Positions 16,750-58,007 are shown, counted from the stretch's first letter. The stretch: DNA of 64,000 nt from Planctomycetota bacterium (GCA_020631815.1 JACKGW010000004.1:112184-176183), one strand, 5' to 3'. Numbers and translations are program-made. Notes: generated by a model not told the origin, from the sequence alone.

Positions 16750-19567
16750 CCTCGAGTGGGGACTTCGCATCCGGCGGGATGACGATCGCCTCGTCCATCG
16801 CTCGGTAGCCGGGCGGTACGGTCACGCGCAGCAGTCGCCTGGCTCCCGGCAGCGGGGGCGGAAGCACGGCGAGCCCGAAGCGGTCCGTAGCGACGCGCTC
16901 GAACGGCTTGCGCCTGTACATCCATCGGGTCCCGCTTCCGAAGTCGTAGTCGACTTCGATGCCAACGCCGCCCACCAAGCCCTTCGCATCTCGAACCGCG
17001 AGCGCCAGTCGAGGATCGCGTTGAAGCTGCACCGGCTCTGCGCCGTCGAGCGGGACGATCCGCGGAAGGAGGCGAATCTCGGTCCCGTCCGGCCGCTTGG
17101 CACGGACGACGACCAGGTCGTAGCTCTCGACGAGCGAAGAACCGCCGGGGGGCGGCTTCCCAGCTGTCATTCGCGCCATGCGCAGCGTGCGGTCCAGATC
17201 GAGAAGGCTGAGGCGACCAACGTGGACCATCCGAACGCCGTAGGGCTCGACCCACTCCCCCACACGCTGGATCTCGGACCCTTCCTCGCCGGGGCGTGGC
17301 AGCTTCCGCACGGTGGCGAGCACGAGCATCTCGGTGGGTACAAGCGGCAGCCCCTCGTCGTCTTCGAGCCGGAGGACGAACTCGTGGGGACGGCGCTCGT
17401 AGGGAGCAAGAGCCGGCGCTGGCTTGCGGGTGGTGAGCTCGAGCAGCGAGGCCCACAGCTGCCCGTCACGCTCGGCGAAGACACGGTGGCGAATCGGAAA
17501 GCCGTCCTCGGGTCGGAGCGTCGCGAGCTCGCCACCCGCAAGGCGGTACTCGCTCTGTTGGACCGGATACCACGTGCCATCCCGCTCGGAGACGACGACC
17601 ACGTCGGCCACTGGCCTGGCGGGTTCGGACGGCCTGAGAACGGGCAAGAGCTCGGATACTGCGTCAAGCTGCAGCTCGACACGTGTCTCGCGGCCGACGG
17701 TCACGTCGAACTCCACGCGGCGCACGGTTCCACGCGAGCCGGTAATCACCACGTAGTGCCGGCCCGGCCCGAGCCCGCGCATGCGGGCGAATCCGCGATC
17801 GTCGAACCGTGCGAGCTCATCGGGATCGGGGCCGTGGAGCTTGAACCAGTCGGTCCCACCGAAGCTGGTGATGTGGCGAGGCGCCCGGGCCAAAGCGCCC
17901 ACCGGCCGCACGTGCAGGCCGGCGAGGGGCATGCCGTCTGGCGACGTGGCATGGAGGAGGGCGCTGCCGCCCGGACGCAATGCGACGTGGATTTCGTCGG
18001 CGAGATCGTCGATGCGCGCCCAGTAGCGGCGATGCGCAGGCGAGGAGATCCACAGCTGGGCGCCGGGCTGGTCGATGGGGCCGACGTCCAGGCGGAACCG
18101 TCCCTGCTCGTCCGTCCGCGCCGCGCACATCGTGTCGCCGTCGAGACCCTGTACGAGCGCGTCGGGGATCGGGTCTCCTGCACCGTCCACGACGCGTCCC
18201 TCGATCACCCGGCCTGGTGCGTCCACTTCGGGCGCAGGCGGCCGCCCGCGTGGAACCTCCACGTCGCGGACCGGCGTGACCGCCACGCGCACCTCCACGC
18301 TTGGACCCTTCGGCGGCTCGTCGAGAAACTCGAGCCACCGCTTGTCCGCCTCGACTCGGAGGCGCGGTGCTGTCAGCCGCCACAGACCTGGCGGAAGCCA
18401 CGTCCGGAAGGAACCGTCTTCCTCGGCCAACACCCACCGGAGCCCAGGCCACAGTCCCAGGGCCCGCTCGATGCTCTCCCGGTCGGGGTCGAGGCCCGCC
18501 TCGACGCCGCGCGGCGGCGGGATCACTTCATGGACGACAAGCCACCGCGTGAGCTCCGGTTCTCCTGCGACGCCGGGTGCGTGGCCCTCGACGAGGGTGC
18601 CGCGTGTCAGCTCGATGGGTCCAGCGGTCACGAGCTCGCCGCGGCCGGAGGGCCGGATCTCGACCCGCGGCGTGGGTGCGAACCCCGGAGCCTGCACGTA
18701 CACGCTCGGGAAGGTCAGCTGGAACAGGATGTCGTCCGCGGACGCCGTAGGGGGAAGCCTCCACCGGAAGCTGCCGTCCGCCTCCACGTCAAAGGGCGCG
18801 CTCCAGGGCCCCGAGCGTCCAAGCCGCACGGTCGTGTCGGGCGGTAGCGGCTCGCCGTCGACCGCGCGAATCTGTCCCCAGACACGCACGTCGCGCGCCT
18901 TGGCGTTCAACGCGGCGGGATCCACGCGCGTTGCTCCGGGCACGGCGGCACCGACCCAACGGCCTGGTCCTCGCTCGGCGTCCATCCAGCGCGCGTGAAC
19001 CCGACTCGGCGGCAGACCGTCGAAGCGCAGCGTGCCGGGAACCGCTCCGTCCGGACCCGCAACAGACCAGACGGGGGCTTCGAGCACATCCAGCTGCGGC
19101 CCGAGCACGGTCAGCCGAGCCTCGCCGTCGGTCTCCAGCGGGCTCGTGCGGATGCGCGCAGGCTCGGAGACCAAGCTGAACCCGATCACGTCGCCTTGCA
19201 CGTAGCGTCCGCGCTCGACGACCCGGACCTGCACGTGCGGGGGATCCCCGACGCACACCAGGCAGCGCGGGGCAGTAGGCAGCTCGACGGACGCTGCCCC
19301 ACCCACATCCGTTCGAGCTACAGGGGCCCGATCGAGGGCCCGAACCTGGTCGTAGGCGTCAAGCCACGCGGCAGCATCCTGCCGGGTGGGACGCATGCCG
19401 GTCGACTCCAGCGGTACCCAACGCACGGCGGCCATCGGCATCGGCCGGCCGTCGATCTGCGCCTCGACCACGACGCGAAGCGGAGGCTGCTCACCCGTCG
19501 GTGCGCGACGAGCCGATGCCAGCACGACAAGGACGAAGAGGGCGCCGAATGCTGTCGTTCGGAGCAC
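16730..19567 (-). CDS. Large secreted protein with repeated CarboxypepD_reg-like / Ig-like beta-sandwich segments, hypothetical
   Basis: 945 aa with signal peptide MLRTTAFGALFVLVVLASA. Contains repeated GxVxDxxGxPxxxAxV...TDxxGxFRL-type segments (for example GRVVDGAGDPIPDALVQGLDGDTMCAARTDEQGRFRL). No catalytic motif seen. Confidence 0.6.
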   Translation of the reverse strand: MLRTTAFGALFVLVVLASARRAPTGEQPPLRVVVEAQIDGRPMPMAAVRWVPLESTGMRPTRQDAAAWLDAYDQVRALDRAPVARTDVGGAASVELPTAPRCLVCVGDPPHVQVRVVERGRYVQGDVIGFSLVSEPARIRTSPLETDGEARLTVLGPQLDVLEAPVWSVAGPDGAVPGTLRFDGLPPSRVHARWMDAERGPGRWVGAAVPGATRVDPAALNAKARDVRVWGQIRAVDGEPLPPDTTVRLGRSGPWSAPFDVEADGSFRWRLPPTASADDILFQLTFPSVYVQAPGFAPTPRVEIRPSGRGELVTAGPIELTRGTLVEGHAPGVAGEPELTRWLVVHEVIPPPRGVEAGLDPDRESIERALGLWPGLRWVLAEEDGSFRTWLPPGLWRLTAPRLRVEADKRWLEFLDEPPKGPSVEVRVAVTPVRDVEVPRGRPPAPEVDAPGRVIEGRVVDGAGDPIPDALVQGLDGDTMCAARTDEQGRFRLDVGPIDQPGAQLWISSPAHRRYWARIDDLADEIHVALRPGGSALLHATSPDGMPLAGLHVRPVGALARAPRHITSFGGTDWFKLHGPDPDELARFDDRGFARMRGLGPGRHYVVITGSRGTVRRVEFDVTVGRETRVELQLDAVSELLPVLRPSEPARPVADVVVVSERDGTWYPVQQSEYRLAGGELATLRPEDGFPIRHRVFAERDGQLWASLLELTTRKPAPALAPYERRPHEFVLRLEDDEGLPLVPTEMLVLATVRKLPRPGEEGSEIQRVGEWVEPYGVRMVHVGRLSLLDLDRTLRMARMTAGKPPPGGSSLVESYDLVVVRAKRPDGTEIRLLPRIVPLDGAEPVQLQRDPRLALAVRDAKGLVGGVGIEVDYDFGSGTRWMYRRKPFERVATDRFGLAVLPPPLPGARRLLRVTVPPGYRAMDEAIVIPPDAKSPLEVRLERE

Positions 19568-19811
19568 GAGTCATCTCCCAGCTGGTTCCGCCTGAGGACG
19601 AGGCTACAGCCGGGGCCGGCAGACGTGGCTTGTCGAGCTGCTTCGAGACGGAGCCAGGGGAATCCGCGCGTAGGACATCGACGCCAACATCGTCGCGGCA
19701 AGGGGGAGGTGGGATTGATGTAGCGGCGTGGGATGCGCGCGTCGGCGGCTTCGCCACGGGCCTCGGCCAGGACGGCGAGGGCATCCCCGCCCGGGTCACC
19801 GTGACGCAGCT

Positions 19812-21503
19812 TCAGCGGGCCAGGTACTGCCCCCCGTTCTCGGCGGCGAGTCGCTCGAGGAACGGCTTGTTGTGGTTCTTGCCGACGCCGATCGTGTGGA
19901 TCGTGATGCCGCGGGTCTGGTTGAGGCGGTTCACCTCCTGCAGGATCACGTCCGGGCGAACGAACTTGCCGCGCGAGGGCGCGCCGTCCGTCATGAGGAA
20001 CATCGTGTCCGCACCACTCTGGCGGTTCTTGCGGTCGCTGGAGCCGCTGATGACGTTGAAGGCCTGCTCGATGGCGTCGTAGATGTTGGTCTGCATCTGC
20101 GGCTGGACGTGCTCGTCGATCCACTTGAAGGCCTTGTCCTTGTTGGCTGCCGTGGCCACGACCATGCGGCCTTCCTTGAACACCAGCACGTCCGTCGAGA
20201 AGAGCACGATATTGAACGTCGCCGCACCGCGCTCGTCCTCGTCGACGGCGGACAGACCACGAAGCGCGCGCTTGAGCTCATCGCGGCAGACGTCGATCTT
20301 GGCCGGCTGGTCCGCCGGGTCGTCCTCCTGGCGAGCCATCGACCCGGAGACGTCGGCGACGAAGATGATGTGCTTGCTGTCCGTCTCGATGCCGTAGAAG
20401 GACGTGCCGCCGTCGTTGGACTCGGTCAGGATCGGCAGCTTGGGCGGATCGTCCCAGACCGGCCCGGGCTCGCGCGGCACACGCTCCCAGCGCGCCAGCA
20501 CGTCTGCCTTGTTCGCGGGCCACCACGACTGCCACGCCATGACGATGGCCTTGACGGGCTCGCTCACGATGCTGGACATCGTCTGGAAGATGCGCCGCCG
20601 AACGACGCCCTCCTCCTTCTCGGCCTGGGCCAGGAGGGCCTCGATCACCTCGGGATCCCTGTAGAAGATGAGACCGTCGAGCGAGGCCGAGCGCAGCTGC
20701 CAGTCCTCGTGGCCGAGGAACCCGAGCAGGATCTCCTTGCCACGCACGGTGTTTTGGCGACCGAGCGCCTCGAGCGCCGCCTCGACCAGGAGCGGATCGC
20801 GCTCCTGCGTCTGCTCCTCGAGCGCCTTCGTCACGGCCTCGCCGCGCACGAAGCCCAACGTCGCGATCATCTCGGCACGTTCGAGGCCTTTGCCCTTCTC
20901 GGCCGCGCGGACCAGCTCACCCACCGCCCGCTCGAACTCCTCGCCCTCGATGTCCTTCAGGATGCGGGCGGCCCCCATCCGCACCTGCCTCAGCAGGCGG
21001 CGCTCGGCATTGGCTTCGTCGTACTGACGCATCAGCTGCTCGTGGGCCGCCACCATCTGGCCGGGACGCTTGGGCGGCGCGCCCAGCCAGCGCCCCTCCT
21101 CGCTGGCCAGGTTCACGATGAACGGAGGCACCGGCTCGCCCTTCTTCTCGTAGCGCTCGCGGTGCTTGCGCATGGCCTCCTCGCGCTGGCTCTCCATGCG
21201 CGAGGTCTTCTCCTGCCACTCGGCCATGCCCTCTTCCCAGGCCTCGAAGAGGTCGTCCGTGTGCTTGCGCTGGGAGGTCACGGCAGACATCAAGAGCTTC
21301 ACGCCCCGCCCGTCCTTGGAGCGGGCCACCTGCTTGAGGGCGCCCTCCCGCTCGGCGCGGCCGGACTTGCCCGGACGGAAGCTCTTCTTGAACTGGCCCT
21401 CGATGTCGCTCCAGTCCGCGCTGGCCGCGGCGACCGGGCGCAGCGGCGTCCCACTCGTCAGGAGCGCGAGTAGGGCCGCAACGAGCACGAGGTTCCGCGT
21501 CAT
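19812..21503 (-). CDS. Secreted HEAT-repeat / von Willebrand factor A (VWA) domain protein
   Basis: The start is set at MTRNLVLVAALLALLTSGTPL (signal peptide), rejecting the 228-codon upstream extension of the track ORF. The middle has HEAT-like repeats (LVEAALEALGRQNT ... LRSASLDGLIF). The C-terminus has a VWA MIDAS motif (IIFVADVSGSM ... MTDGAPS ... IHTIGVG). Confidence 0.7.
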   Translation of the reverse strand: MTRNLVLVAALLALLTSGTPLRPVAAASADWSDIEGQFKKSFRPGKSGRAEREGALKQVARSKDGRGVKLLMSAVTSQRKHTDDLFEAWEEGMAEWQEKTSRMESQREEAMRKHRERYEKKGEPVPPFIVNLASEEGRWLGAPPKRPGQMVAAHEQLMRQYDEANAERRLLRQVRMGAARILKDIEGEEFERAVGELVRAAEKGKGLERAEMIATLGFVRGEAVTKALEEQTQERDPLLVEAALEALGRQNTVRGKEILLGFLGHEDWQLRSASLDGLIFYRDPEVIEALLAQAEKEEGVVRRRIFQTMSSIVSEPVKAIVMAWQSWWPANKADVLARWERVPREPGPVWDDPPKLPILTESNDGGTSFYGIETDSKHIIFVADVSGSMARQEDDPADQPAKIDVCRDELKRALRGLSAVDEDERGAATFNIVLFSTDVLVFKEGRMVVATAANKDKAFKWIDEHVQPQMQTNIYDAIEQAFNVISGSSDRKNRQSGADTMFLMTDGAPSRGKFVRPDVILQEVNRLNQTRGITIHTIGVGKNHNKPFLERLAAENGGQYLAR

Positions 21504-21874
21504 GGGCAGGGTCTCCTGAAGGACTCCCAGGGTCTGTCGGGGAGCACCCCGTCGCATGGGCTGGGGAGCCGAGGTAAGCCACAGGCACGACGTGAGTCCG
21601 GGCCCGAGGCGGTCTGCATGCCGCCGGGGAGCCGGTTTCCAGTCGGGCCGTGACGCCGCGAGAGACCTGGCTGCGACAGCAGCAGCGCTTCTCGGACGGG
21701 CCTCAGTGTGGCCGAGATGCACCCCGAATGCAGGCCCGCTCTTCGCCGCACGCCTGCATCGACCGTTCGGGGAGGCGCTCCGCCCCCCCGAGGCGCGTGG
21801 GGACCGGGTCCCGGCCCGGACGCACGCCGGCAGCGGGGCATCCACGCGCCCCACGGCCGGCTTGTAGGCGCGGA

Positions 21875-24133
21875 TCAGAAGCGGATGGCAAGCGAGAGGG
21901 ACCCGTAGAGCTCGCGCCCGGCCCCCGGCACGATCTGGTTGTCGCGGTGGACCAAGTAGACCTCCTCGTCGAGGGCGTTCTTCGCCGTGACGGCAGCATC
22001 GACTTCCAAGGTCAGGCAGGACACGCGCCAGCGCTTGCGCCACCCGGCCCGCACTTCGACGAGCCAGTCGGCAGGGCTGCGGATGGTGTTCTCCGCATCG
22101 GCCCAGCTCGCACCGTGGTGCAAGGCCTCGACGACACCGTAGAGACCCGAGCGGTGCTCGTAGCGCAGGCCGACGTTGCCAGTCCACTCGGGGACGTGGG
22201 TCGTCGAGCTCCCCTCGTTCTCACCGTCGACGAACTCGCTCTCCTGCCGGGTCATCGAACCGAACGCCGACCATCCGCAGAGAGCGCGGCTGCAGCGCCC
22301 GAGGTCGGCCTCCAAGGTCAGGTCCACACCCTGGCTCTCGAAGCCACCCAAGTTGGTGTAGATGTCCGTCAGCGGGTCGTAGTCGAGGAAGTCGCTGAAG
22401 TCGACGTGCCACAGGGCCAAGCTTCCGGACAGGCAGCCGCATCCCAGCAGGTTCTTGCTGTTCAGGCCGACCTCGACATTCGTCCCGTGCTCGAAGTCCA
22501 GCTCCTGATCGGGGTTGTTGAAGTCGTAGCCCCAGATCTGCGGCGCCCGGAACGAACGATGCCAGTTGCCGAACAGCGCCAGCTGGGGGGAGAGCTCGTA
22601 GCTCAGGGACACGCCTGGGAACACCTCCACGAAGTCGAAGTCGAGCGAGTTCCCCGTGATCTTGTCCGTTGCGCGGGAGTCGGGAATCCACTCCAGACGT
22701 GCGCCGGCGGTCAGCGTCAGGCAGCCCCACCGCATGGTGTCGTCCAGCCAGACGGCGATCGCGTCCGTTTCGGTTCGTGCATCCTGGGTCGTGTTGCGCG
22801 CGCCACCACCGATCGGATCCTCGAAGGTCGTGCGGTCACAGCGCTCGTAGTGATAGCGCATGCCGTAGTGCAGGACGTGGCTGCGGCCACCGCCTAGGGC
22901 CACTTCGCCCTCGACCCCGACTTCGGCCGTGATGTTGTCGCTGTCGGCGCTGCGCACGGACGTGAACGGCGGGCCGCTCGTAGGGCGCAGGCTGTCGAGC
23001 ATACGTCGAGCCAAGCGGTAGTGGGCATACACCTCGGTCCACGACCCGCAGCCCCACTCCCGGTGCATGCGTGCGGTTCCGCCATACGCCCAGCCTTCCC
23101 AGTCCGCCTCGGGGAGGGTGAAGTTCTGGGTGCGGTCGGCTCGGTACTGGTCCCACGTCAAGCGGCTCTGCAGCTCGTGCACGTCCCGCCAGTGGAAGCC
23201 CTCGACTTGGATCCACGTACGGCAGTCCAGATCGCGTCGCACCTTGAGCGCGACCTCGTTGACGTGGAAGTCGCTGTTCTGGCGGAAGGTCGCGCCGGAC
23301 TTGTGGACGCCTTGAACGAGCCAGCTCCAGGGACCGGAGCGATTCCCGGCTTCCGTCAGTGCGGCCACGTAGCCGTGGCCACCGAACGTGACGCGCGTGT
23401 CGAAGAAGCCACCGTCCGGGACCGGGCGCGTGAGGAAGTTGACCACGCCGCCGATCGTGTTGGGGCCGTAGCGCAGGGCATGCGCGCCACGATGGACTTC
23501 GGCGGCCCAGATGCGCTCGGGGGCAAAGGGGAAGATCGAGAGAGCGGTCCACCCGTAGGCGATCGTGCTCCAGTTGATCCCGTCAACGTGGACGGCCGTG
23601 TACTCGGTGAACCCGTTGTCGGGCATGCCGCGCACGCTGATGGACGGTCGCAAGTGCTCGTCGCCGCTGTAGAGCCGGCTGGAGACACCAGGGAGGCGAC
23701 GCGCCACCTCCTCCACGCTGATTGGCGTCGCTTCTTCGATGCGCCGCGGGGACAGCACCTCGTGCGTGCCCGTGCGACGAAGGACGGGCTGCGGCAGGGC
23801 CGCCAGCTCCGAGGCCGAGAGGCCGCCCGATCCCCCCCGTACCGCGCGTCGAGGGGTTCGCTGCAGATCCACGGGGCCCATGGCTTGCGGCCGACGTGCG
23901 ACGACGTCGACGGCGCCGACGTCCACGGAGCCCTCACGGTCCTCCATCGCGGAATCGGACGCGGACTCCTCCACGCCTGCCGTCGTTGCAGCCTCGTTCG
24001 CCACGCCATCGTCGTCGGCACGGGCCGCAGTCGGCCACGCGCTGATGGCGAGCAGGAACACGGCAAGCCCGCGGAGCAACCCCGACCAACGACCTCGAGC
24101 AGCCCGTAATCTCCAACCGAAACCGTACGACAT
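21875..24133 (-). CDS. TonB-dependent outer-membrane receptor
   Basis: Signal peptide (MSYGFGWRL ... LAISAWPTAARA), then a plug domain (VLSPRRIEEATPISVEEVARRLPGVS ... ISVRGM). This is followed by a long beta-barrel ending in the typical C-terminal aromatic (LSLAIRF). The start may alternatively be at MRGARKRR (24172). Confidence 0.75.
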   Translation of the reverse strand: MSYGFGWRLRAARGRWSGLLRGLAVFLLAISAWPTAARADDDGVANEAATTAGVEESASDSAMEDREGSVDVGAVDVVARRPQAMGPVDLQRTPRRAVRGGSGGLSASELAALPQPVLRRTGTHEVLSPRRIEEATPISVEEVARRLPGVSSRLYSGDEHLRPSISVRGMPDNGFTEYTAVHVDGINWSTIAYGWTALSIFPFAPERIWAAEVHRGAHALRYGPNTIGGVVNFLTRPVPDGGFFDTRVTFGGHGYVAALTEAGNRSGPWSWLVQGVHKSGATFRQNSDFHVNEVALKVRRDLDCRTWIQVEGFHWRDVHELQSRLTWDQYRADRTQNFTLPEADWEGWAYGGTARMHREWGCGSWTEVYAHYRLARRMLDSLRPTSGPPFTSVRSADSDNITAEVGVEGEVALGGGRSHVLHYGMRYHYERCDRTTFEDPIGGGARNTTQDARTETDAIAVWLDDTMRWGCLTLTAGARLEWIPDSRATDKITGNSLDFDFVEVFPGVSLSYELSPQLALFGNWHRSFRAPQIWGYDFNNPDQELDFEHGTNVEVGLNSKNLLGCGCLSGSLALWHVDFSDFLDYDPLTDIYTNLGGFESQGVDLTLEADLGRCSRALCGWSAFGSMTRQESEFVDGENEGSSTTHVPEWTGNVGLRYEHRSGLYGVVEALHHGASWADAENTIRSPADWLVEVRAGWRKRWRVSCLTLEVDAAVTAKNALDEEVYLVHRDNQIVPGAGRELYGSLSLAIRF

Positions 24134-24381
24134 GGTGCCTCCCGCTGCGCGTCGTTTCCGTGCGCCGCGCATCACTGTGTCGACGTCGCGTGGAGCAAGG
24201 CCCGGACCAGGGCCAAGTCGAATCGTTGGCGACACGCTACGGGCGTCGCGACGTGCAGGTATGTCCCGACTTGTTCCCAATGCGCCGTAGCAGGGGGAGA
24301 CCCGCGTGTGACGCGCACGTATCGATCGGGGCGCGCCGGGGCCATGTTGGGCGGTGGCATCGCGCTTGCACCTCGTGCTGC

Positions 24382-27195
24382 ATGTCCTCCATCGATGACA
24401 GCACACGCACTTCGTTCCGCGACGACGCGCCCTGGGCGGCTTGGCGAGCACGTCGCCTGCGAGCGCCGCTGGCCCTGGCCCTCGTCACCTGCTTGGTGGG
24501 CCTGCCGGGCACGAGAGGCCTGGCGCAGCCCGACGTGCGTGGATTGAGGGACGAGCTCCGCGTGGGCATCTCGGCGCGCCCCGGGCCACACAGCATCCTG
24601 ACCCCGCTCGTGTACTGGGGCGGCTTCGTCACGAAAACGGCCGTTTACGACGGTCTGACGCGGCCTGCCGCGGATGGCTCGATCGAGCCCGGCCTGGCGG
24701 CGAGCTGGGAGATCGGAGACGGCGGTCGGCGCATCGTCCTGCACGTGCGCGAAGGCGTCGTCGACCACGCGGGACACGCGTTGGTCGCCCAAGACGTGGT
24801 GGACCACTTGGAGCGATGGCGCGGCAATCCCGGAAGCCGCTGGATCGGGTCGACCGAGCGCATGACGGAGATTCGCGCCCTCGATCCCCGCACGGTCGAA
24901 GTCCGGCTGCGCGAACCGTGGCCCTTCCTCGAGGAGTGCGCCGCGGCGATCAACCCGGCCTACGTCGTGCCGCCCGACGCGTACGACAACGAAGGCACGT
25001 TCGTGGCCACGGTGGGTACGGGCCCCTTCCGTCTGCTCGAGCATCGACCCGGCAAGGACGGCGACACCTTCGTGCTGGAGGCCCATACCGCATGCTGGCG
25101 TGGCGCCCCGCACGTTGGACGTCTCGTGCTGCAGGCCCTGCCCTCGAGTCCTACGTGGTCGCAGGATGCCCTCGCCGCGATCCGCGCGGGGGAGCTGGAC
25201 ATGGTGGTCGACGGGAGCAGCCCGCGGTGGGATCGAAGCCTGCTGCCACGCCTGCTCGACGATCCCGACCTCGAGGTGCATGTCGGACCGGGCTCGGCCA
25301 CGACGTGTCTCGTGCTGAACACCGCGTCGGGGCCGTGTGCGAACCGTGCCCTGCGACTTCGACTCGCAGCCTCCATCGACCGCGCGCAGCTGGTTGCGGA
25401 CGTGGAGCGGGGCCTTGCGCGCCCCGCGACGACGCTGTTCGCGGCGCCGGGCGCCGGGTGGGCGCCGATCGAGGCGCCGCCCTCGTGGCCCTCCTCGGCC
25501 CCCGACGAGGTGGTGACGTTGCGGCTCCTCTTGGCCTCCCCCGGCGATGTCCGGTCCCGGCAGCTCGGGGAAGCGCTGGGACGCCAGCTCGAGCCGCACG
25601 GCTTCCGTGTCGTGCTCCAAGCGGCGAGCGACGCCTCCGAGGCCCGCAGACGGCTGGGAGACGGCGCGTTCGACATCTTGCTGCGCGACACGTACGGCGT
25701 CCCCTACGACCCCTGGGTCACGTTGCAGGCGTGGTTCCTGAAGCGACCGGAGGGTCGAACCGCATCCAGCTCCCCGCCGGTCTGGGACGACGCGACGCTT
25801 CGCGACCTGATCCTCGCGGCGTACACGGCGCCCACCGCGGAGGAGCGCACGCAAGGGCTGGGACGCGTCCAGGCGCGCATTCGCTCGGAGGCCGCGGTGG
25901 TGCCGCTGCTGGTACCGCAGCAGGTCATCGTCTCCCGTGCGGGTCTCGCCAGCGTGCACGCGGACACGAACGCCTACGACCTCGACCTCGCCTCCGTGCG
26001 CGTGCTTGCGGATCCGCCCACACGAGGCCGCCCCGTGACGGCCCGACCGTTGGAGGTGGCCGCAACACCTCCGGGGGCCGATCCGCGCAAGGCCGCCGTG
26101 CCCCTGCCCTGTGCTGACGACTGGGACGCCTGGCTGGTCCATGACAACGCAGGCGTTGGTGTCTGGACGGTGGGTTCCTTCCAGGTCTTCGGCCATCTCG
26201 GCGCCCACGAGATCGTCGGCTTGGACGACGCCGGCAGGATGCACGTGAGCTGGTCCTACAGCGGCAAGTGGACGCCGATCGACGTCGTCAACGACGGCGA
26301 GTGGCTGGGCGGACTGGCGCACGATGACCTGGATCCGCGCGTTCCCGGCACGGAGCTCTACACGGCCGGCAAGCGGGGTCACCTGTTCCAGGTGACGACG
26401 CCTACGAACGAGCGGATGCTCGATGCACGGCGCATCGGCGGGATCGAGGGGCGCGAGATCCACACGTTGGTCGCCGGCGATCTGGACGCCGCGCACCCCG
26501 GACACGAGCTGCTCCTGTTCACGAACCCCGGTGGCCTGTACATGGCGACGCCGACGGGGCCGGACGGCACCTTCGAGATCCGCAGGCTGGAGGAGCTCGT
26601 TGGCCTCGTGCGGCAGGCGCTCCTGTTGCCCACCTTGCCGGGCGACGACGCCCGGATCGCCACCGTGGGCCGCGATGGCGCGCTCTCGCTGCTGACGGTC
26701 CATGACGGAAAGGCCCAGTGGGAGCACGTCGCCCGGGCGAGCGCAGGGCGCGGGCGCGTGGCCCTGCAGCCAGGGGCCGCGCCGCTCGGCCCCTGGGTTC
26801 TCTACACGACGCTGGACGACGGCCGTGTCGAGCGCCACGAGCAGATGGCGCGCGGCGGCCCATGGGCCACGGAGCTGATCTACGCCGGTCCGGCAGGCCC
26901 GCGTGGTGTCGTTGCGGGCCGCTTCGACGCAGACCCCGCGATCGAGACCGTGGCCGTGTTCGGCTACAGCCACAAGCTGCAGCTGCTCACGCGCTCGCCA
27001 CGAGGGACGTGGTCCGTGCGGACCATCTTCCGCGACATCGACAAGGGCCACTGGCTGTGCGTGGCGGAGGTCGAGGGCCGCAACGACACGGACGAGATCG
27101 TCGCGAGCGGATACGGCGGGCGCGTCGTGCTCCTCGCGAGGCCTCCGGGGTACGGCCGTCACGACGTGGCGCTCGACCCGGAGGGCGACCGCTGA
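24382..27195 (+). CDS. Fusion protein: family-5 solute-binding protein (DppA/OppA/NikA-like) plus a C-terminal FG-GAP/VCBS-like beta-propeller
   Basis: The start is at ATG 24382 (MSSIDD ...) with a signal-like segment (LALALVTCLVGLPGTRGLAQP). Residues about 60-560 resemble SBP_bac_5 (YDGLTRPAADGSIEPGLAASWEI ... GTGPFRLLEHRPG). The C-terminal roughly 380 aa carry about 7 repeats of the LYTAGKRGHLFQV / LLLFTNPGGLYMA / VAVFGYSHKLQLL / IVASGYGGRVVLL type. Confidence 0.65.
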   Translation: MSSIDDSTRTSFRDDAPWAAWRARRLRAPLALALVTCLVGLPGTRGLAQPDVRGLRDELRVGISARPGPHSILTPLVYWGGFVTKTAVYDGLTRPAADGSIEPGLAASWEIGDGGRRIVLHVREGVVDHAGHALVAQDVVDHLERWRGNPGSRWIGSTERMTEIRALDPRTVEVRLREPWPFLEECAAAINPAYVVPPDAYDNEGTFVATVGTGPFRLLEHRPGKDGDTFVLEAHTACWRGAPHVGRLVLQALPSSPTWSQDALAAIRAGELDMVVDGSSPRWDRSLLPRLLDDPDLEVHVGPGSATTCLVLNTASGPCANRALRLRLAASIDRAQLVADVERGLARPATTLFAAPGAGWAPIEAPPSWPSSAPDEVVTLRLLLASPGDVRSRQLGEALGRQLEPHGFRVVLQAASDASEARRRLGDGAFDILLRDTYGVPYDPWVTLQAWFLKRPEGRTASSSPPVWDDATLRDLILAAYTAPTAEERTQGLGRVQARIRSEAAVVPLLVPQQVIVSRAGLASVHADTNAYDLDLASVRVLADPPTRGRPVTARPLEVAATPPGADPRKAAVPLPCADDWDAWLVHDNAGVGVWTVGSFQVFGHLGAHEIVGLDDAGRMHVSWSYSGKWTPIDVVNDGEWLGGLAHDDLDPRVPGTELYTAGKRGHLFQVTTPTNERMLDARRIGGIEGREIHTLVAGDLDAAHPGHELLLFTNPGGLYMATPTGPDGTFEIRRLEELVGLVRQALLLPTLPGDDARIATVGRDGALSLLTVHDGKAQWEHVARASAGRGRVALQPGAAPLGPWVLYTTLDDGRVERHEQMARGGPWATELIYAGPAGPRGVVAGRFDADPAIETVAVFGYSHKLQLLTRSPRGTWSVRTIFRDIDKGHWLCVAEVEGRNDTDEIVASGYGGRVVLLARPPGYGRHDVALDPEGDR

Positions 27196-27199
27196 GGCC

Positions 27200-28039
27200 A
27201 TGGTGCTTCCCCCGAGCACCACCACCGTGTGCGCCAGGCTCGCGACGGACTGCCCGCCGACGCCTCGCGGGTCGAGAGCGCGGCCTCGGTGGGCTCCTGC
27301 GCCTTGGGCCGTTTCGGCCGTCCTCCATGGGGCGGCCGTCGCCTTGCTCGTACCCGTCGCCTTGGAGATGCCCACGCGCCCCGTCGTCCAGGCGTTGCAC
27401 CTGACCTTCGAGGAGAGCTCCGTCCCCGATCTGTCAGCCGAGGACGCGCAGCCCGTGGACCCGGCGCTCCTCGAGGCGGGGCCCCAACCAACGGCCGCCG
27501 CGCCCGTTCCGTGGGAGCCACGTCTCGAGCCACGCGAGGACGACGCACCGGACGAGCTGCCCGAGGCGCCCGAGCCGCGCGATCCGGTCGCGCGGGACAT
27601 GGCTACGCCTGCGCTGGACGAGCTCACGTCGCCGCGGCGGCCTCGGCGTCGGACCCGCACATCCGTTACCGCGCCCGGACACCTACCGTCACCCCGAGAG
27701 ACCCCTCCGGCACTTCTCCCGCCGGCTCCCCGCCCCGCACCTGCCCCTGCGCCCACCCCGCAGCCGTCCCGGTCACGGAGCGTCCCACGTCAGGCCTGGG
27801 CCCCTTCGCCAACGTCGTACTACCCGGAGCCGGCTCGGCGCGAAGGCGTGGAGGGGACCGTGCGCATCGGCCTCGACATCGCCGCCAGCGGCGCGGTGCA
27901 ACGCGCGTGGGTCATCGTCTCCTCCGGCGACGCGCGCTTGGACGATGCCGCCCGCGACCTCGGACTGGCGGTCCGGTTTCACCCCATGAGCAGCGCTGCG
28001 ATTGGCGAGCTGACGGTCCGATTCCGATTGGAAGGATGA
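27200..28039 (+). CDS. tonB: Energy transducer TonB
   Basis: The start is at the internal ATG 5 nt after the SBP-fusion stop. It has a TM anchor (AVSAVLHGAAVALLVPVAL), a Pro-rich spacer and a TonB_C domain (YPEPARREGVEGTVRIGLDIAASGAVQRAWVIVSSGDARLDDAARDLGL). Confidence 0.7.
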   Translation: MVLPPSTTTVCARLATDCPPTPRGSRARPRWAPAPWAVSAVLHGAAVALLVPVALEMPTRPVVQALHLTFEESSVPDLSAEDAQPVDPALLEAGPQPTAAAPVPWEPRLEPREDDAPDELPEAPEPRDPVARDMATPALDELTSPRRPRRRTRTSVTAPGHLPSPRETPPALLPPAPRPAPAPAPTPQPSRSRSVPRQAWAPSPTSYYPEPARREGVEGTVRIGLDIAASGAVQRAWVIVSSGDARLDDAARDLGLAVRFHPMSSAAIGELTVRFRLEG

Positions 28040-28106
28040 GGGTGCCCGAACCTCGCGATCGGCGCACCCCTTGCGTAGGGGCCGCCGTCGTCGCCAGGAG
28101 ACAGCC

Positions 28107-28448
28107 ATGCAGAAGCGCTTCCCCGGGGTCCATCGCAACGGTCGGGCGTCGCGGGACCGGGCCGTGCTGGAGTGCCTGAGTGGCATCGAGTTCCGCCTGG
28201 CGTGCAGCATCCCGTACTTGGCGGACCTGCTGGACTCCGAGGTCGACGACGTGGTGCTGGGAACGCTGGCCTACATCCGCCGCTGGCAGCTGCGCGACAT
28301 GCGAAGCGATGTGCGCCGCCTGGCCGAGGGGCGGATGGCCTCGCGCGACGTGCAGCGCGCCGCGCGCAAGACGCTGGAGCGTCTTGACCAGCCCGCCGAC
28401 GACGTCGCTGCGACGAGGCCGCGGGAGCGCTCGCAGCGCGCGGGATGA
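28107..28448 (+). CDS. Hypothetical small protein (113 aa)
   Basis: Starts at ATG 28107 (MQKRFPGV ...). No recognisable motif. Called from codon usage and frame coherence only. Confidence 0.35.
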   Translation: MQKRFPGVHRNGRASRDRAVLECLSGIEFRLACSIPYLADLLDSEVDDVVLGTLAYIRRWQLRDMRSDVRRLAEGRMASRDVQRAARKTLERLDQPADDVAATRPRERSQRAG

Positions 28449-28454
28449 CGGACG

Positions 28455-29426
28455 CTACTGCGGCGCTTCGTCCAGGCTCTCGAGCAGCTTGAGGTAGGAG
28501 TCGAACCGGAAGTCCGCGAGGCGCCCGTCCTCGACGGCGATGAGGACGGCGCATCCGGGCTCGTGCGTGTGCGAGCAGTCCGGGTAGCGGCATTCGGGGG
28601 CGATCTTCGCGATGTCGCGGAAGAGCCAGGGCACCTCGCGCTTGGGGATGCCGAAGAGACCGAACTCGCGAATGCCGGCGGTGTCGATGACGGCCCCGCC
28701 GACGTCGAGATCCACCCACGTCGAGGCGGTCGTGGTGTGCGTGCCGCGCCCCGTGACTTCGTTCACGTCCCCCACCGCCAGGCCCAGTCCGCCCTGCACG
28801 GCGTTGAGGAGCGAGGACTTGCCGACGCCGCTGTGGCCCGTCACGACCGTCACGCGACCGGCGAGCTCGTCGCGCAGCGCCTCGATGCCACGCCCGTCGA
28901 CGACGCTGGTCGCGACCACGGCGTAGCCCAGCTCGCGGTAGACGTCGAGCTCCTCGGGTTCCTCGTCGACGAGGTCGAGCTTGTTCACGACGACGATCGC
29001 ATCCAAGTGCGAGAACTCGACGACGGCCAGGATGCGGTCGACCAGCGCCGGGTTGAAGATGGGATCGGCCGCCGCGCTCACGATGGCGACGCGGTCGGCG
29101 TTGGCCGCCATGACGTGCTCGACGCGCTCGCGGCGCGTGCTGGGGCGGGAGAGGGTCGTGCGACGCGGCTCGAGGTGATCGATGGCCCCGCGGTCCTCGC
29201 CGCTCCAGTGCACGACGACGCGATCACCCACGACGGCGGGCGTCTTCTGGCCGGGCCGAGCACCGCGGTAGTGCCGCCCGCGCACCGCGCACCACAGCTC
29301 GTTGCCGGCGCCGGGAAGCTCGTCGTGTGCCTCGTCCAGCCGCACGAGGCAGCCGCGCGCATCCAGGCGCACGACGCGTCCGGTCCACGCGGGCCCGTGC
29401 GGGTCCTGTCGTCGTGCTGCGCTCAC
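28455..29426 (-). CDS. rsgA: Ribosome small-subunit-dependent GTPase A
   Basis: Circularly permuted GTPase motifs are present (VVNKLDLV, then VVTGHSGVGKSSLLNAV), plus a C-terminal Zn-finger (CRYPDCSHTHEPGCAV). Confidence 0.85.
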   Translation of the reverse strand: MSAARRQDPHGPAWTGRVVRLDARGCLVRLDEAHDELPGAGNELWCAVRGRHYRGARPGQKTPAVVGDRVVVHWSGEDRGAIDHLEPRRTTLSRPSTRRERVEHVMAANADRVAIVSAAADPIFNPALVDRILAVVEFSHLDAIVVVNKLDLVDEEPEELDVYRELGYAVVATSVVDGRGIEALRDELAGRVTVVTGHSGVGKSSLLNAVQGGLGLAVGDVNEVTGRGTHTTTASTWVDLDVGGAVIDTAGIREFGLFGIPKREVPWLFRDIAKIAPECRYPDCSHTHEPGCAVLIAVEDGRLADFRFDSYLKLLESLDEAPQ

Positions 29427-54318: not shown

Positions 54319-55239
54319 CTAGGGCAGGTCCTCGAGCGCGGCTTCGTAGCTGGCGATGTCGTGGGCAGCACCCAGCGAGCCGAGCCGCGCGGCACGCTCC
54401 AGCAGGAGGGCCAGGACTCCTTCCAGTCCCTTGGCGAGTGCGCTCAAGGCAGCCAGCGGGTCGTCCAGCTCGAGCTCGCGCAGGATGGACTGGATCAACG
54501 AAGCCGTTCCAAGCTGGGCGTCGGTGACGTCGTGAAGCCCGCCAGCACTCGGCCTCCGTACGCCTGGCACATGCTGGTACCCCCACTCCCCTAGCGGCAG
54601 GTGAGGTACCGGATCGTGCGCTGCGGCAAGGGCGAGGTAGCGATCCCCCAGGGCGTTGCGTGCGGATGTCGCCCAGGCCCCATCTCCCACGCGAGGCTGG
54701 CCGAAGGTCGCCACGCCCTGCAGGGGCACGTGCGTCGTACGCAGCAGATCGAGTGCGGCGAGGGTCGCGAGTGCACCGCCGAGGCTGTGCCCGGTGATCC
54801 ACAATCGCAGGGCAGGGTCCGCTGCCTGCTTTGCGACAAGCTCGGCCTTCAGGGCTTCCCAGTCGTAGCTCCCGCTTCCCGTGACGGTGAGCCCTCGATG
54901 GAACCCTGCATGGCGGCGCCCGCCACCTGTGTCGCTCAGGAGCACGGCCCGGGCATTGAGGACCCAGTCGTTCACCCTCATCTCGCTCCCGCGGAAGGCG
55001 AGGACGACCCAGCCATCCTGCTGCAGGACCAGCAGCTGGGTGTCGGGGTCCACCCGCGTACGGGGCGAGCACGATCGCAGGTCGACGGGAACCGTGCCCA
55101 GCGCCTCTTCGAGTGCTGCAGGTCCGAGGTAGGCGAGGTGACTTGCCCGCGCGAGGGCGCGCAGGACATCGCCGTGGCCCACGGGGAGCGGGCTCGCCAC
55201 CGCCATGCCGTGGGGATCCGTCCATCGAAGCTGGCTCAT
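54319..55239 (-). CDS. Class-3 (fungal-type) lipase family alpha/beta hydrolase
   Basis: The start is set at MSQLRWTD. Has the nucleophile elbow GHSLGGALA preceded by VVLAFRGS and followed by conserved Asp/His regions (FGQPRVGD ... HD). This is the Lipase_3 pattern. The start overlaps the stop of the upstream patatin-like gene. Confidence 0.7.
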   Translation of the reverse strand: MSQLRWTDPHGMAVASPLPVGHGDVLRALARASHLAYLGPAALEEALGTVPVDLRSCSPRTRVDPDTQLLVLQQDGWVVLAFRGSEMRVNDWVLNARAVLLSDTGGGRRHAGFHRGLTVTGSGSYDWEALKAELVAKQAADPALRLWITGHSLGGALATLAALDLLRTTHVPLQGVATFGQPRVGDGAWATSARNALGDRYLALAAAHDPVPHLPLGEWGYQHVPGVRRPSAGGLHDVTDAQLGTASLIQSILRELELDDPLAALSALAKGLEGVLALLLERAARLGSLGAAHDIASYEAALEDLP

Positions 55240-58001: not shown

Positions 58002-58007
58002 GAGCGC

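Follow-up and report, generated by a model that had tools for sequence, protein, structure and literature searches.

In a 64,000-nucleotide stretch of DNA from a Planctomycetota bacterium (GCA_020631815.1, JACKGW010000004.1:112184-176183; hereafter the window), positions 21875 to 28039 hold a compact locus in which the gene for a TonB-dependent receptor (TBDR) is arranged divergently from a gene that fuses a family-5 solute-binding protein (SBP) to a β-propeller and is followed directly by tonB. The reading preferred here, to which a probability of roughly 0.45 is assigned, is that the locus represents a lineage-specific module for TonB-driven import of a metal chelate or organic anion with capture of the ligand in the periplasm by the SBP-propeller protein. 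At the cell surface the TBDR would bind a small ligand, for which a metal chelate or other organic (poly)anion is the most probable class, and the co-encoded TonB, using ExbB/ExbD from elsewhere, would energize its passage into the periplasm. There the soluble SBP-propeller protein would catch the ligand and hold it in a Venus-flytrap domain resembling those of NikA and CntA, and the linker-joined propeller would associate with the periplasmic face of the TBDR, with TonB, or with the inner leaflet of the outer membrane; alternatively, the propeller may co-bind or process the ligand. Capture would thereby be coupled directly to translocation. The onward route might be an unlinked permease, or the cargo might be used in the periplasm, and one dimeric regulator would probably control both transcription units through sites resembling GTATCG-N4-CGATAC.

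As the window is about 71% GC, spurious long open reading frames (ORFs) are common, and frames were chosen by third-position GC. All three genes are found in frames supported in this way, and the same contig in a public annotation (GCA_041398635.1, JAWKUF010000004.1) carries identical calls for the three. A Planctomycetota metagenome-assembled genome encodes a protein 100% identical to the fusion protein, for which public annotation has no name more specific than “ABC transporter substrate-binding protein” or “nickel transport system substrate-binding protein.” An initial annotation of this DNA had described these genes as a locus for TonB-dependent uptake, in which a family-5 SBP is joined to a propeller and a dedicated TonB is encoded just 3' of the fusion gene. 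Every structural detail of that description holds, including the gene structure, coordinates, divergent order, and 248-nt shared intergenic region; the domain calls are upheld by Pfam and AlphaFold2 (AF2), and the spacer before tonB measures 4 nt.

How firmly these parts belong together can be judged from related loci, which were collected by tblastn with the window proteins and compared by clustering all ORFs from 65 non-redundant loci (designated L; individual proteins are designated P). In pattern a (L001-L005 and L010), the TBDR gene is divergent from an SBP-propeller gene, with protein identities of 46-78%; tonB follows the fusion gene in L001-L003, and in L004 a TonB on the opposite strand is paired with a second TBDR. 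A further fusion gene, in L009, lies on a short contig. In pattern b, found in about 19 loci, a TBDR gene is followed on one strand by a stand-alone propeller gene; TonB follows this pair in L017, and in L021 the order is SBP, TBDR, propeller. Pattern c, in about 14 loci, has the opposite domain order, propeller before SBP, with the two parts fused (about 12) or adjacent. In pattern d (about 9 loci), genes for two unknown exported proteins stand directly before the propeller gene, where the other loci have the TBDR gene, and in pattern e (L034 and L069) an unfused SBP gene precedes the TBDR gene without a propeller. Orthologues of the window TBDR, at 49-84% identity, adjoin the SBP-propeller gene in L002-L005 and L010. 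Every pairwise linkage of TBDR, SBP, and propeller exists, in addition to the full triad, and such linkages are about the strongest genomic evidence there is for what would be a functional and physical partnership. The TBDR/SBP-propeller arrangement, present in six independent loci, is not a chance juxtaposition; the genes are linked in evolution.

The fusions themselves have been made in both orders. Pfam places SBP_bac_5 C-terminal to the propeller in P0058, P0061, P0062, P0066, and P0070, and L006 and L007 have separate genes for the two parts, that of the propeller immediately preceding that of the SBP. In a library clustered at 50% identity, the SBP-propeller order accounts for about 3 clusters and the reverse order for about 30, with a similar number of stand-alone propellers. 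The window propeller is 53-57% identical to TBDR-linked stand-alone propellers as against 44-50% to those in propeller-SBP fusions, and the window SBP is 41-46% identical to unfused SBPs as against 33-37% to SBPs in propeller-SBP fusions. Because each of the two domains is nearer to relatives outside the reverse-order fusions, the two fusion orders look like independent events.

The receptor is recognized by a Plug domain at residues 122-230 (PF07715, E=7e-13, 49 bits against a cut-off of 23.9) followed by a 22-strand-type barrel (PF00593, TonB_dep_Rec_b-barrel, E=4e-42, 146 bits against a cut-off of 27), which is the architecture of a TBDR. Its N terminus, by eye, consists of a signal-peptide-like segment and an acidic stretch with a TonB-box-like VDVGAVDVVA. 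The nearest curated and PDB relatives are FecA (116 bits; 1e-27) and FoxA, far under equivalog cut-offs. The locus resembles those of FecA- and siderophore-type receptors with a dedicated TonB in its Plug and barrel, its neighboring tonB, and, as judged by eye, a TonB-box-like segment, but it differs in having no FecIR, Fur box, or siderophore genes and in scoring far under any curated substrate-specific model. A role as a FecA-type signaling transducer was rejected, the NF041676 score being 116 bits against a cut-off of 1100 and Pfam detecting no STN signaling domain in the protein; sigma or anti-sigma genes of the fecI/fecR type were not found near the TBDR gene. The TonB is canonical, with a hydrophobic transmembrane helix bearing an S-x3-H motif (SAVLH), a Pro-rich middle, and a C-terminal TonB_C domain (PF03544, E=9e-10, 39 bits against a cut-off of 24.6; TIGR01352, 49 bits against 27.1). 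The fusion gene ends in TGA at 27193-27195, the spacer is “ggcc,” the tonB ATG stands at 27200, and GGAGGG lies 15 nt upstream of that ATG; from this junction, tonB is probably translationally coupled to the fusion gene.

The least familiar component is the propeller. The C-terminal 362 residues of the fusion protein (26107-27192) have no match in Pfam or NCBIfam, and the β-propeller call of the initial annotation is borne out by an AF2 model, run with an 18-sequence alignment of the domain, in which 28 strands form seven blades of four (pLDDT 93.8, pTM 0.92). Foldseek against the PDB returns many generic seven-bladed propellers at probability 1.0 (WD40 proteins, Sec13, ARPC1), the best query-normalized TM score, 0.69, being to the FG-GAP-type CRTAC1; a sequence-profile search of the PDB yields weak generic WD40 and Cake matches and nothing specific. 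Among 1.84 billion cluster representatives, phmmer finds 350 relatives, 95 of them at E<=1e-30, with a far tail of FG-GAP_3/VCBS giants; FG-GAP_3-rich distant relatives such as P0186 and P0067 match at E=1e-16 to 1e-23. A pattern scan of 185,579 species genomes located the family in 61 loci, nearly all titled Planctomycetota or its subgroups, including the cultured Saltatorellus ferox Poly30; the exceptions are a few labeled “bacterium” and one labeled “Paracoccaceae.” By these comparisons the domain appears to be a compact, single-propeller family restricted to Planctomycetota and distantly akin to FG-GAP/VCBS repeats. With the FG-GAP/VCBS propellers, CRTAC1 among them, it shares the seven-blade fold, distant phmmer kinship, and D-x-D-type loops; unlike them, it is missed by the Pfam FG-GAP models and carries motifs of its own (YSGKWTP, DKGHWL, and LDDGR). 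Invariant charged residues are D40, D76, E83, R169, R243, R266, D323, R325, E330, and R345. The initial annotation treated the propeller as an appendage of the SBP and overlooked it as an autonomous partner, whereas the comparative data show an autonomous, Planctomycetota-specific TBDR partner that is often, by itself, a predicted lipoprotein. Some “short” members of the family are probably artifacts: P0017 (661 amino acids), an SBP-propeller homologue, runs out of frame after about residue 250 into an Arg/Pro-rich nonsense tail, probably through an assembly frameshift.

Where the propeller acts is central to any account of the module. By inspection, the window fusion protein has a predicted signal peptidase I site between GLAQ and PD and no conserved lipobox, and most fusion orthologues have ordinary signal peptides ending in Ala-x-Ala/AQ-type sites. 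A lipoprotein assignment by way of Cys37 (in LVTC) was rejected, as this Cys lies inside the hydrophobic core and is not conserved, and the true N terminus of the closest relative, L002, has no Cys; a Tat signal (RRLR) was dropped, also not being conserved. In the full-length AF2 model, linker residues 546-571 have pLDDT values below 50, and the modeled protein looks like two beads on a string. The stand-alone propellers present a different picture. A Cys stands at the end of the signal peptide in all 11 TBDR-adjacent members whose N termini were extracted (from 18 TBDR-propeller loci examined) and in about 14 of 19 others, and position +2 in these proteins is not Asp, which predicts outer-membrane lipoproteins. 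From sequence, then, lipid anchoring and SBP fusion look like two alternative means of keeping the propeller in position. SBPs are periplasmic proteins, and because SBP domains work in the periplasm, the window fusion protein is most readily taken to be soluble and periplasmic; the propeller family as a whole may, less firmly, act on the periplasmic side.

A different placement would put the propeller, with any fused SBP, at the TBDR's outer face, where it would serve as a lid that catches ligand, or as a secreted scavenger, in the manner of BtuG and XusB. The parallel with the BtuB-BtuG and XusA-XusB(-XusC) systems of Bacteroides is considerable: the TBDR-propeller order of the roughly 19 pattern b loci mirrors btuB-btuG and xusA-xusB, BtuG and XusB are seven-bladed propellers that work with, and are encoded beside, non-SusC TBDRs, the context is one of micronutrients or metal chelates, and the stand-alone planctomycetal members, with no Asp at +2 in any of the 11 just described, are predicted lipoproteins. 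XusC, moreover, is a PepSY protein, and a PepSY_TM gene is found in L007. Yet there is no sequence relationship to BtuG or DUF4374, the phylum is another one, and no Bacteroidota-type lipoprotein export signal follows the Cys; to our knowledge, surface lipoprotein export has not been documented in Planctomycetota. The window propeller is also fused to an SBP, normally a periplasmic fold, and like most of the fusions it has no lipobox, an anchorless state that favors the periplasm over the surface. Capture at the surface appears unlikely.

That the propeller is instead a periplasmic enzyme or release factor, which hydrolyzes, reduces, or strips the imported complex so that the SBP binds its product or substrate, seems slightly less likely still. 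Enzymes that process siderophores in the periplasm are well established, many charged residues of the propeller are invariant, His819 and His890 are invariant across the fusion proteins, and several related loci include genes for multihaem cytochromes, a GCS2-type ligase, or an AstE/AspA-type deacylase. However, the domain matches no enzymatic propeller family, its distant kin are the binding modules of FG-GAP/VCBS proteins, and its conserved D-x-D-P-x-x-x-G-x-E loops resemble structural motifs of FG-GAP repeats in degenerate form; the enzyme-like neighbors, for their part, are confined to sub-lineages and absent from this window.

For the preferred reading, in which the propeller may dock on the receptor or on TonB, precedents exist in other systems. 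TolB is a periplasmic propeller that engages TolA, a homologue of TonB, and so offers a case of docking onto a TonB-class force transducer, although it is six-bladed, has an N-terminal α/β domain, serves envelope integrity rather than import, and has no detected homology to the window domain. Contacts between SBPs and TonB are likewise on record for FhuD and BtuF.

The SBP domain matches SBP_bac_5 (PF00496) over residues 101-455 of the fusion protein (E=4.5e-42, 145 bits against a cut-off of 32.4), and its AF2 model, with pLDDT of about 90 or more over most of its length, has the two-lobe Venus-flytrap fold; score and fold together place it in family 5. Foldseek gives target-normalized TM scores of 0.78-0.80 to NikA, CntA, and 4wed, and also matches DppA structures. 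The closest relatives by sequence are 4wed from S. meliloti, the NikA proteins of Brucella and E. coli, and CntA of S. aureus. With this branch the window domain shares its fold, export, aromatic pocket residues, and best sequence kinship, but at only about 20-24% identity, and it differs from it in being fused to a propeller and linked to a TBDR and TonB with no adjacent ABC permease or ATPase. Among curated families NikA gives the best match (TIGR02294, E=1.6e-40) and CntA the next, and assignment to either was rejected on score: 139 bits against a cut-off of 393 for the NikA equivalog, and 107 bits against 800 for CntA (NF047575). Opine-synthase or Cnt permease genes were not found in any locus examined.

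The pocket itself points the same way. In E. coli NikA it is formed by Tyr22, Thr23, Met27, Arg97, Trp100, Arg137, Tyr382, Arg386, Trp398, Tyr402, Ser415, and His416, the last of which coordinates nickel (PMC11091072), and the title of PDB entry 3qim names His416 as essential for nickel uptake. These positions were mapped onto 15 family members, comprising 10 fusion proteins and 5 unfused SBPs. Tyr22, Trp100, and Tyr402 are kept in the window SBP as Y78, W154, and Y442. Arg137 is replaced by Asn191, with Asn in 15 of 15 members, and Arg97 is deleted, falling in a gap. His416 becomes Gly458; the residue is Gly in all 10 aligned fusion proteins and in one of the five unfused SBPs, and Ser, Asp, or Pro in the other four, so that no member has His. 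The position of Trp398 holds Tyr, His, or Gln. The NikA sequence used for this mapping is one that we take to be that of the E. coli protein, and it was checked at all 12 numbered positions. Invariant residues are enriched in the segments lining the NikA pocket (21 of 90, as against 14% expected; p=0.013), and the family has motifs of its own, PLVYWGGFxTK, RWRGNPGxRW, INP, TYGxPYDP, and RPxGRTASS. Because of this enrichment, the family-specific motifs, and the changed NikA residues, the pocket is taken to be conserved but re-tooled.

The substrate class suggested by these comparisons is a metal chelate or organic anion, on the basis of the family relationship, the kinship of the TBDR to FecA and FoxA, and scattered neighbors, namely the HMA-domain and DsbD genes of L004 and the PepSY_TM gene of L007. 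An apparent link to iron, by way of an “FbpABC-like” ABC system in L032 and L033, was weakened when the nearest NCBIfam models proved to be of the PhnS/PotD type and not ferric-iron transporters. Among the substrates proposed in the initial annotation, a metallophore or metal complex is the most reasonable class, given the NikA/CntA/4wed branch; the SBP is not a nickel-binding NikA, as judged by the scores and the altered His416 and Arg137.

Canonical nickel or cobalt uptake would have a true NikA take Ni-(His)2 or a nickelophore delivered by a nickel-specific TBDR, with NikBCDE encoded elsewhere and the propeller incidental. Nickel systems with a TBDR and TonB do exist, Helicobacter FrpB4 being an example, and NikA and CntA are both the best curated families and the top structural neighbors of the window SBP. 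Set against this are the shortfall from the NikA cut-off, the loss of His416, Arg137, and Arg97, the absence of any NikR-type box better than shuffled sequence, the absence of nikBCDE from the scanned ORFs of the window and of five orthologous loci, and a propeller linkage far too consistent to be incidental. The locus is not a canonical nickel system, and the nickel reading as framed here is very unlikely. The initial annotation had suggested a search for a cognate ABC permease and ATPase. No ABC permease, ABC ATPase, or ExbB/ExbD was found among the ORFs scanned across the window, no permease or ATPase of the Opp or Nik type next to the orthologues, and no BPD_transp_1, OppC, or ABC_tran genes within 10 kb on either side of this locus or of L002, L003, and L005; in L004 the one ABC system present is of the unrelated NMT1 type.

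Least probable of all is import of a peptide or other non-metal nutrient, in which an Opp/Dpp-like SBP would capture oligopeptides, or an opine- or sugar-like compound, brought in through the TBDR: family 5 has many peptide, opine, and sugar binders, there are weak matches to OppA, DppA, GsiB, AgaA, and AccA, and peptidase genes (M3, M28) adjoin two propeller-SBP genes, but those matches are much weaker (E=1e-6 as against 1e-40 for NikA), no Opp permease genes lie nearby, the TBDR resembles metal-chelate receptors rather than SusC/oligosaccharide types, the peptidase neighbors are not conserved, and the oligopeptide proposed in the initial annotation finds no positive support.

Regulation offers a further line of evidence that the two divergent transcription units of the proposed uptake module belong together. 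In the shared intergenic region (24134-24381), CCTCCC at 24138-24143 is the ribosome-binding site of the TBDR gene on the minus strand; no sigma-70 consensus promoter or intrinsic terminator was found there, and an Rfam scan of 19500-28700 gave no match, so that no riboswitch or leader RNA is indicated. The scan for Fur, Zur, and Nur boxes that the initial annotation had called for yielded none that convinces: no match to a Fur, Zur, NikR, IdeR, or Irr box was better than shuffled sequence, using consensus boxes that are presumably the standard ones, and a Nur-like match, at 3 mismatches, is marginal and lacks conservation. For the regulator site that it expected there is a conserved candidate of another kind, an imperfect palindrome based on GTATCG. 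A search for 10-mers shared by the orthologous intergenic regions was unsuccessful, and GTATCG/CGATAC is the only 6-mer present in all 7 type-a regions, with a joint chance of 2e-10 (the background being 161 copies across about 1.1 Mb of sequence from related loci), or about 4e-7 when corrected for 2080 hexamers; the runner-up, CCTCCC/GGGAGG, is found in 6 of 7. The aligned element reads GTATCG-N4-nGnnAC. L004 has two copies 77 bp apart, one a perfect GTATCG-N4-CGATAC and one with a single mismatch. In the window, site B (Table 1) lies 63 nt upstream of the SBP-propeller start codon, and site A, 99 nt upstream of site B, is the best palindrome match in the region; none of 300 shuffles gave a better one, the shuffle minimum being 2 mismatches as well and the fraction at or below 2 being 0.00. 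The palindrome is a good candidate operator for a dimeric regulator acting on both transcription units. Across the window there are 6 matches with 2 mismatches as against about 1.0 expected, most of them inside genes; one, GTATCGAAGTCGAACC at 60658-60673, lies about 15 nt upstream of a stop-to-stop frame beginning at 60688.

Several points weigh against TonB-driven import with periplasmic capture as the reading of the locus. About a dozen propeller-SBP genes are solitary, with no TBDR or TonB nearby and with unrelated neighbors (CitMHS, peptidases, GNAT), and because these genes stand alone, the propeller-SBP pair can work without a linked receptor. The signal-peptide and lipobox assignments were made by eye, the pTM of the full-length model, 0.63, leaves the mutual orientation of the two domains undefined, and the position of the propeller on either face of the TBDR is one that we infer. 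With the metal-binding His and carboxylate-clamping Arg of NikA absent, the term “metal chelate” is drawn from the family relationship only, and the similarity of the TBDR to FecA is far under any equivalog threshold. In the ORFs and loci scanned, no permease was found that would take the ligand across the inner membrane.

A bolder interpretation, rather unlikely though worth stating, is that Planctomycetota have evolved their own class of TBDR accessory, in which the propeller, lipid-anchored or SBP-fused, is an obligate receptor partner and an SBP without an ABC transporter serves as a periplasmic trap or ratchet. If true, such a trap would make TonB-driven import of metal chelates irreversible and would supply the enlarged planctomycetal periplasm directly. 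Bacteroidota would then no longer be the only phylum with a TBDR-propeller partnership, and an ABC-type binding protein would have taken on a new job.

Much is known of TonB-dependent uptake in Proteobacteria and Bacteroidota and very little of it in Planctomycetota, with their unusual envelope and periplasm. The locus described here brings receptor, TonB, binding protein, and unannotated propeller together in a compact module that recurs. Its individual parts are familiar, and TBDRs with accessory binding proteins are already known. Several features appear undescribed: a propeller family confined to Planctomycetota, the repeated fusion of its members, in either order, to a NikA-like SBP without the nickel ligands, the lack of a linked ABC transporter, and the conserved candidate operator; text searches of the literature returned no paper on the module. 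Should the preferred reading be confirmed, a function would be gained for a propeller family now hidden under the name “ABC transporter substrate-binding protein,” accessory propellers of TonB-dependent transporters would have arisen independently of the BtuG and XusB lids of Bacteroides, and an ABC-type binding protein would possibly be operating without an ABC transporter. It would also serve as a warning against nickel-transporter annotation on the strength of NikA similarity. The conserved GTATCG palindrome provides a handle on a planctomycetal regulator.

Table 1. Features of the uptake locus and its immediate neighbors, in window coordinates
Feature	Position	Strand	Size	Basis or remark
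HEAT-repeat + VWA exported protein gene, possible accessory	19812-21503	-	563 aa	HEAT_2, VWA
TBDR gene	21875-24133	-	752 aa	Pfam Plug + TonB_dep_Rec_b-barrel
Divergent promoter/control region between TBDR gene and SBP-propeller-tonB operon	24134-24381		248 nt	
Candidate operator site A, GAATCGTTGGCGACAC	24220-24235	+		2 differences from GTATCG-N4-CGATAC
Candidate operator site B, GTATCGATCGGGGCGC	24319-24334	+		conserved GTATCG half-site
SBP-propeller fusion gene	24382-27195	+	937 aa	
N-terminal export signal	24382-24528	+	residues 1-49	inspection of translation and orthologue N termini
Family-5 (cluster C) SBP domain, NikA/CntA branch	24547-26016	+	residues ~56-545	PF00496, AF2, Foldseek
Pro/Ala-rich flexible linker	26017-26106	+	residues 546-575	low pLDDT
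Seven-bladed propeller domain	26107-27195	+	residues 576-937	AF2; stop included
Dedicated tonB	27200-28039	+	279 aa	PF03544, TIGR01352
Small ORF downstream of tonB	28107-28448	+	113 aa	no family match

Of the genes flanking the locus, the one encoding the HEAT/VWA protein is a possible accessory. It is read from the same strand as the TBDR gene and follows it after 371 nt, and its product has a signal peptide and an intact MIDAS motif (D-x-S-x-S, here DVSGS). Exported HEAT or HEAT-VWA proteins flank the TBDR in L002-L004 and occur in L007, L050, L051, and L059, but the kinship among the proteins of these loci is only weak. The window and L002 copies share 92% identity and are thus more conserved than the TBDR (84%) or the fusion protein (78%). 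A 2025 paper describes VWA “force transducers” tethered to the inner membrane in bacteria of the Planctomycetota-Verrucomicrobiota-Chlamydiota (PVC) group (PMC12204202). Whether the HEAT/VWA protein is a member of the module is uncertain. Beyond it on the upstream side is a gene for a 945-amino-acid CarboxypepD_reg protein. On the other side, the small ORF that begins 67 nt after tonB encodes a cytoplasmic-looking product conserved only in the closest relative, L002 (81% identity), and is followed by genes for RsgA, an rRNA methylase, a pseudouridine synthase, and LptF/G. The remainder of the window is given to housekeeping functions (a tricorn-type protease, STAS, a sigma-54 activator, UvrD, PhoH, PurA, CarA, and Ppk).

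The surroundings of the related loci vary considerably. In L004, the closest non-sister orthologous locus, an HMA-domain gene directly follows the SBP-propeller gene, and the stretch L004:9573-13300 also holds the second TonB and TBDR, the NMT1-type ABC system, and DsbD, so that it looks like a metal-related island. The pattern d loci (L015, L023, L031-L033, L036, L039, L040, and L064; for example, L036:6496-9658) encode upstream of the propeller one protein of about 630 amino acids and one Gly-rich, β-helix-like protein of about 410, neither with a Pfam or NCBIfam match; in this pair the propeller family may have a second, alternative set of partners. Multihaem c-type cytochromes are encoded near propeller or SBP genes in L020, L021, L032, L033, L036, and L044 (for example, L032:10521-14881), where they adjoin an ABC importer of the PhnS/PotD class with a fused double permease, and in Saltatorellus ferox (L037:6931-9219) cytochromes lie beside an MtrC-like protein, all of which hints at a redox step in some lineages. 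In one sub-lineage (L038, L042, L043, L049, and L055; for example, L043:11196-14414), genes for a GCS2-family carboxylate-amine ligase fused to CBS and for an AstE/AspA-type deacylase lie downstream of the TBDR-propeller pair, and their products may build or degrade a small ligand with an amide linkage. Methyltransferases near L006, L007, and L037 were considered as a partner and set aside as not conserved.

Elsewhere in the window, two very large adjacent genes on the minus strand (55236-61547), encoding proteins of 923 and 1179 amino acids, occupy its only stretch of lower GC, 0.66-0.67 overall and about 0.77 at third positions as against about 0.9 elsewhere. The 923-residue protein has a weak match to patatin-like phospholipases under the Pfam cut-off, the 1179-residue protein has no Pfam match, and the two genes may represent foreign DNA or a fast-evolving pair.

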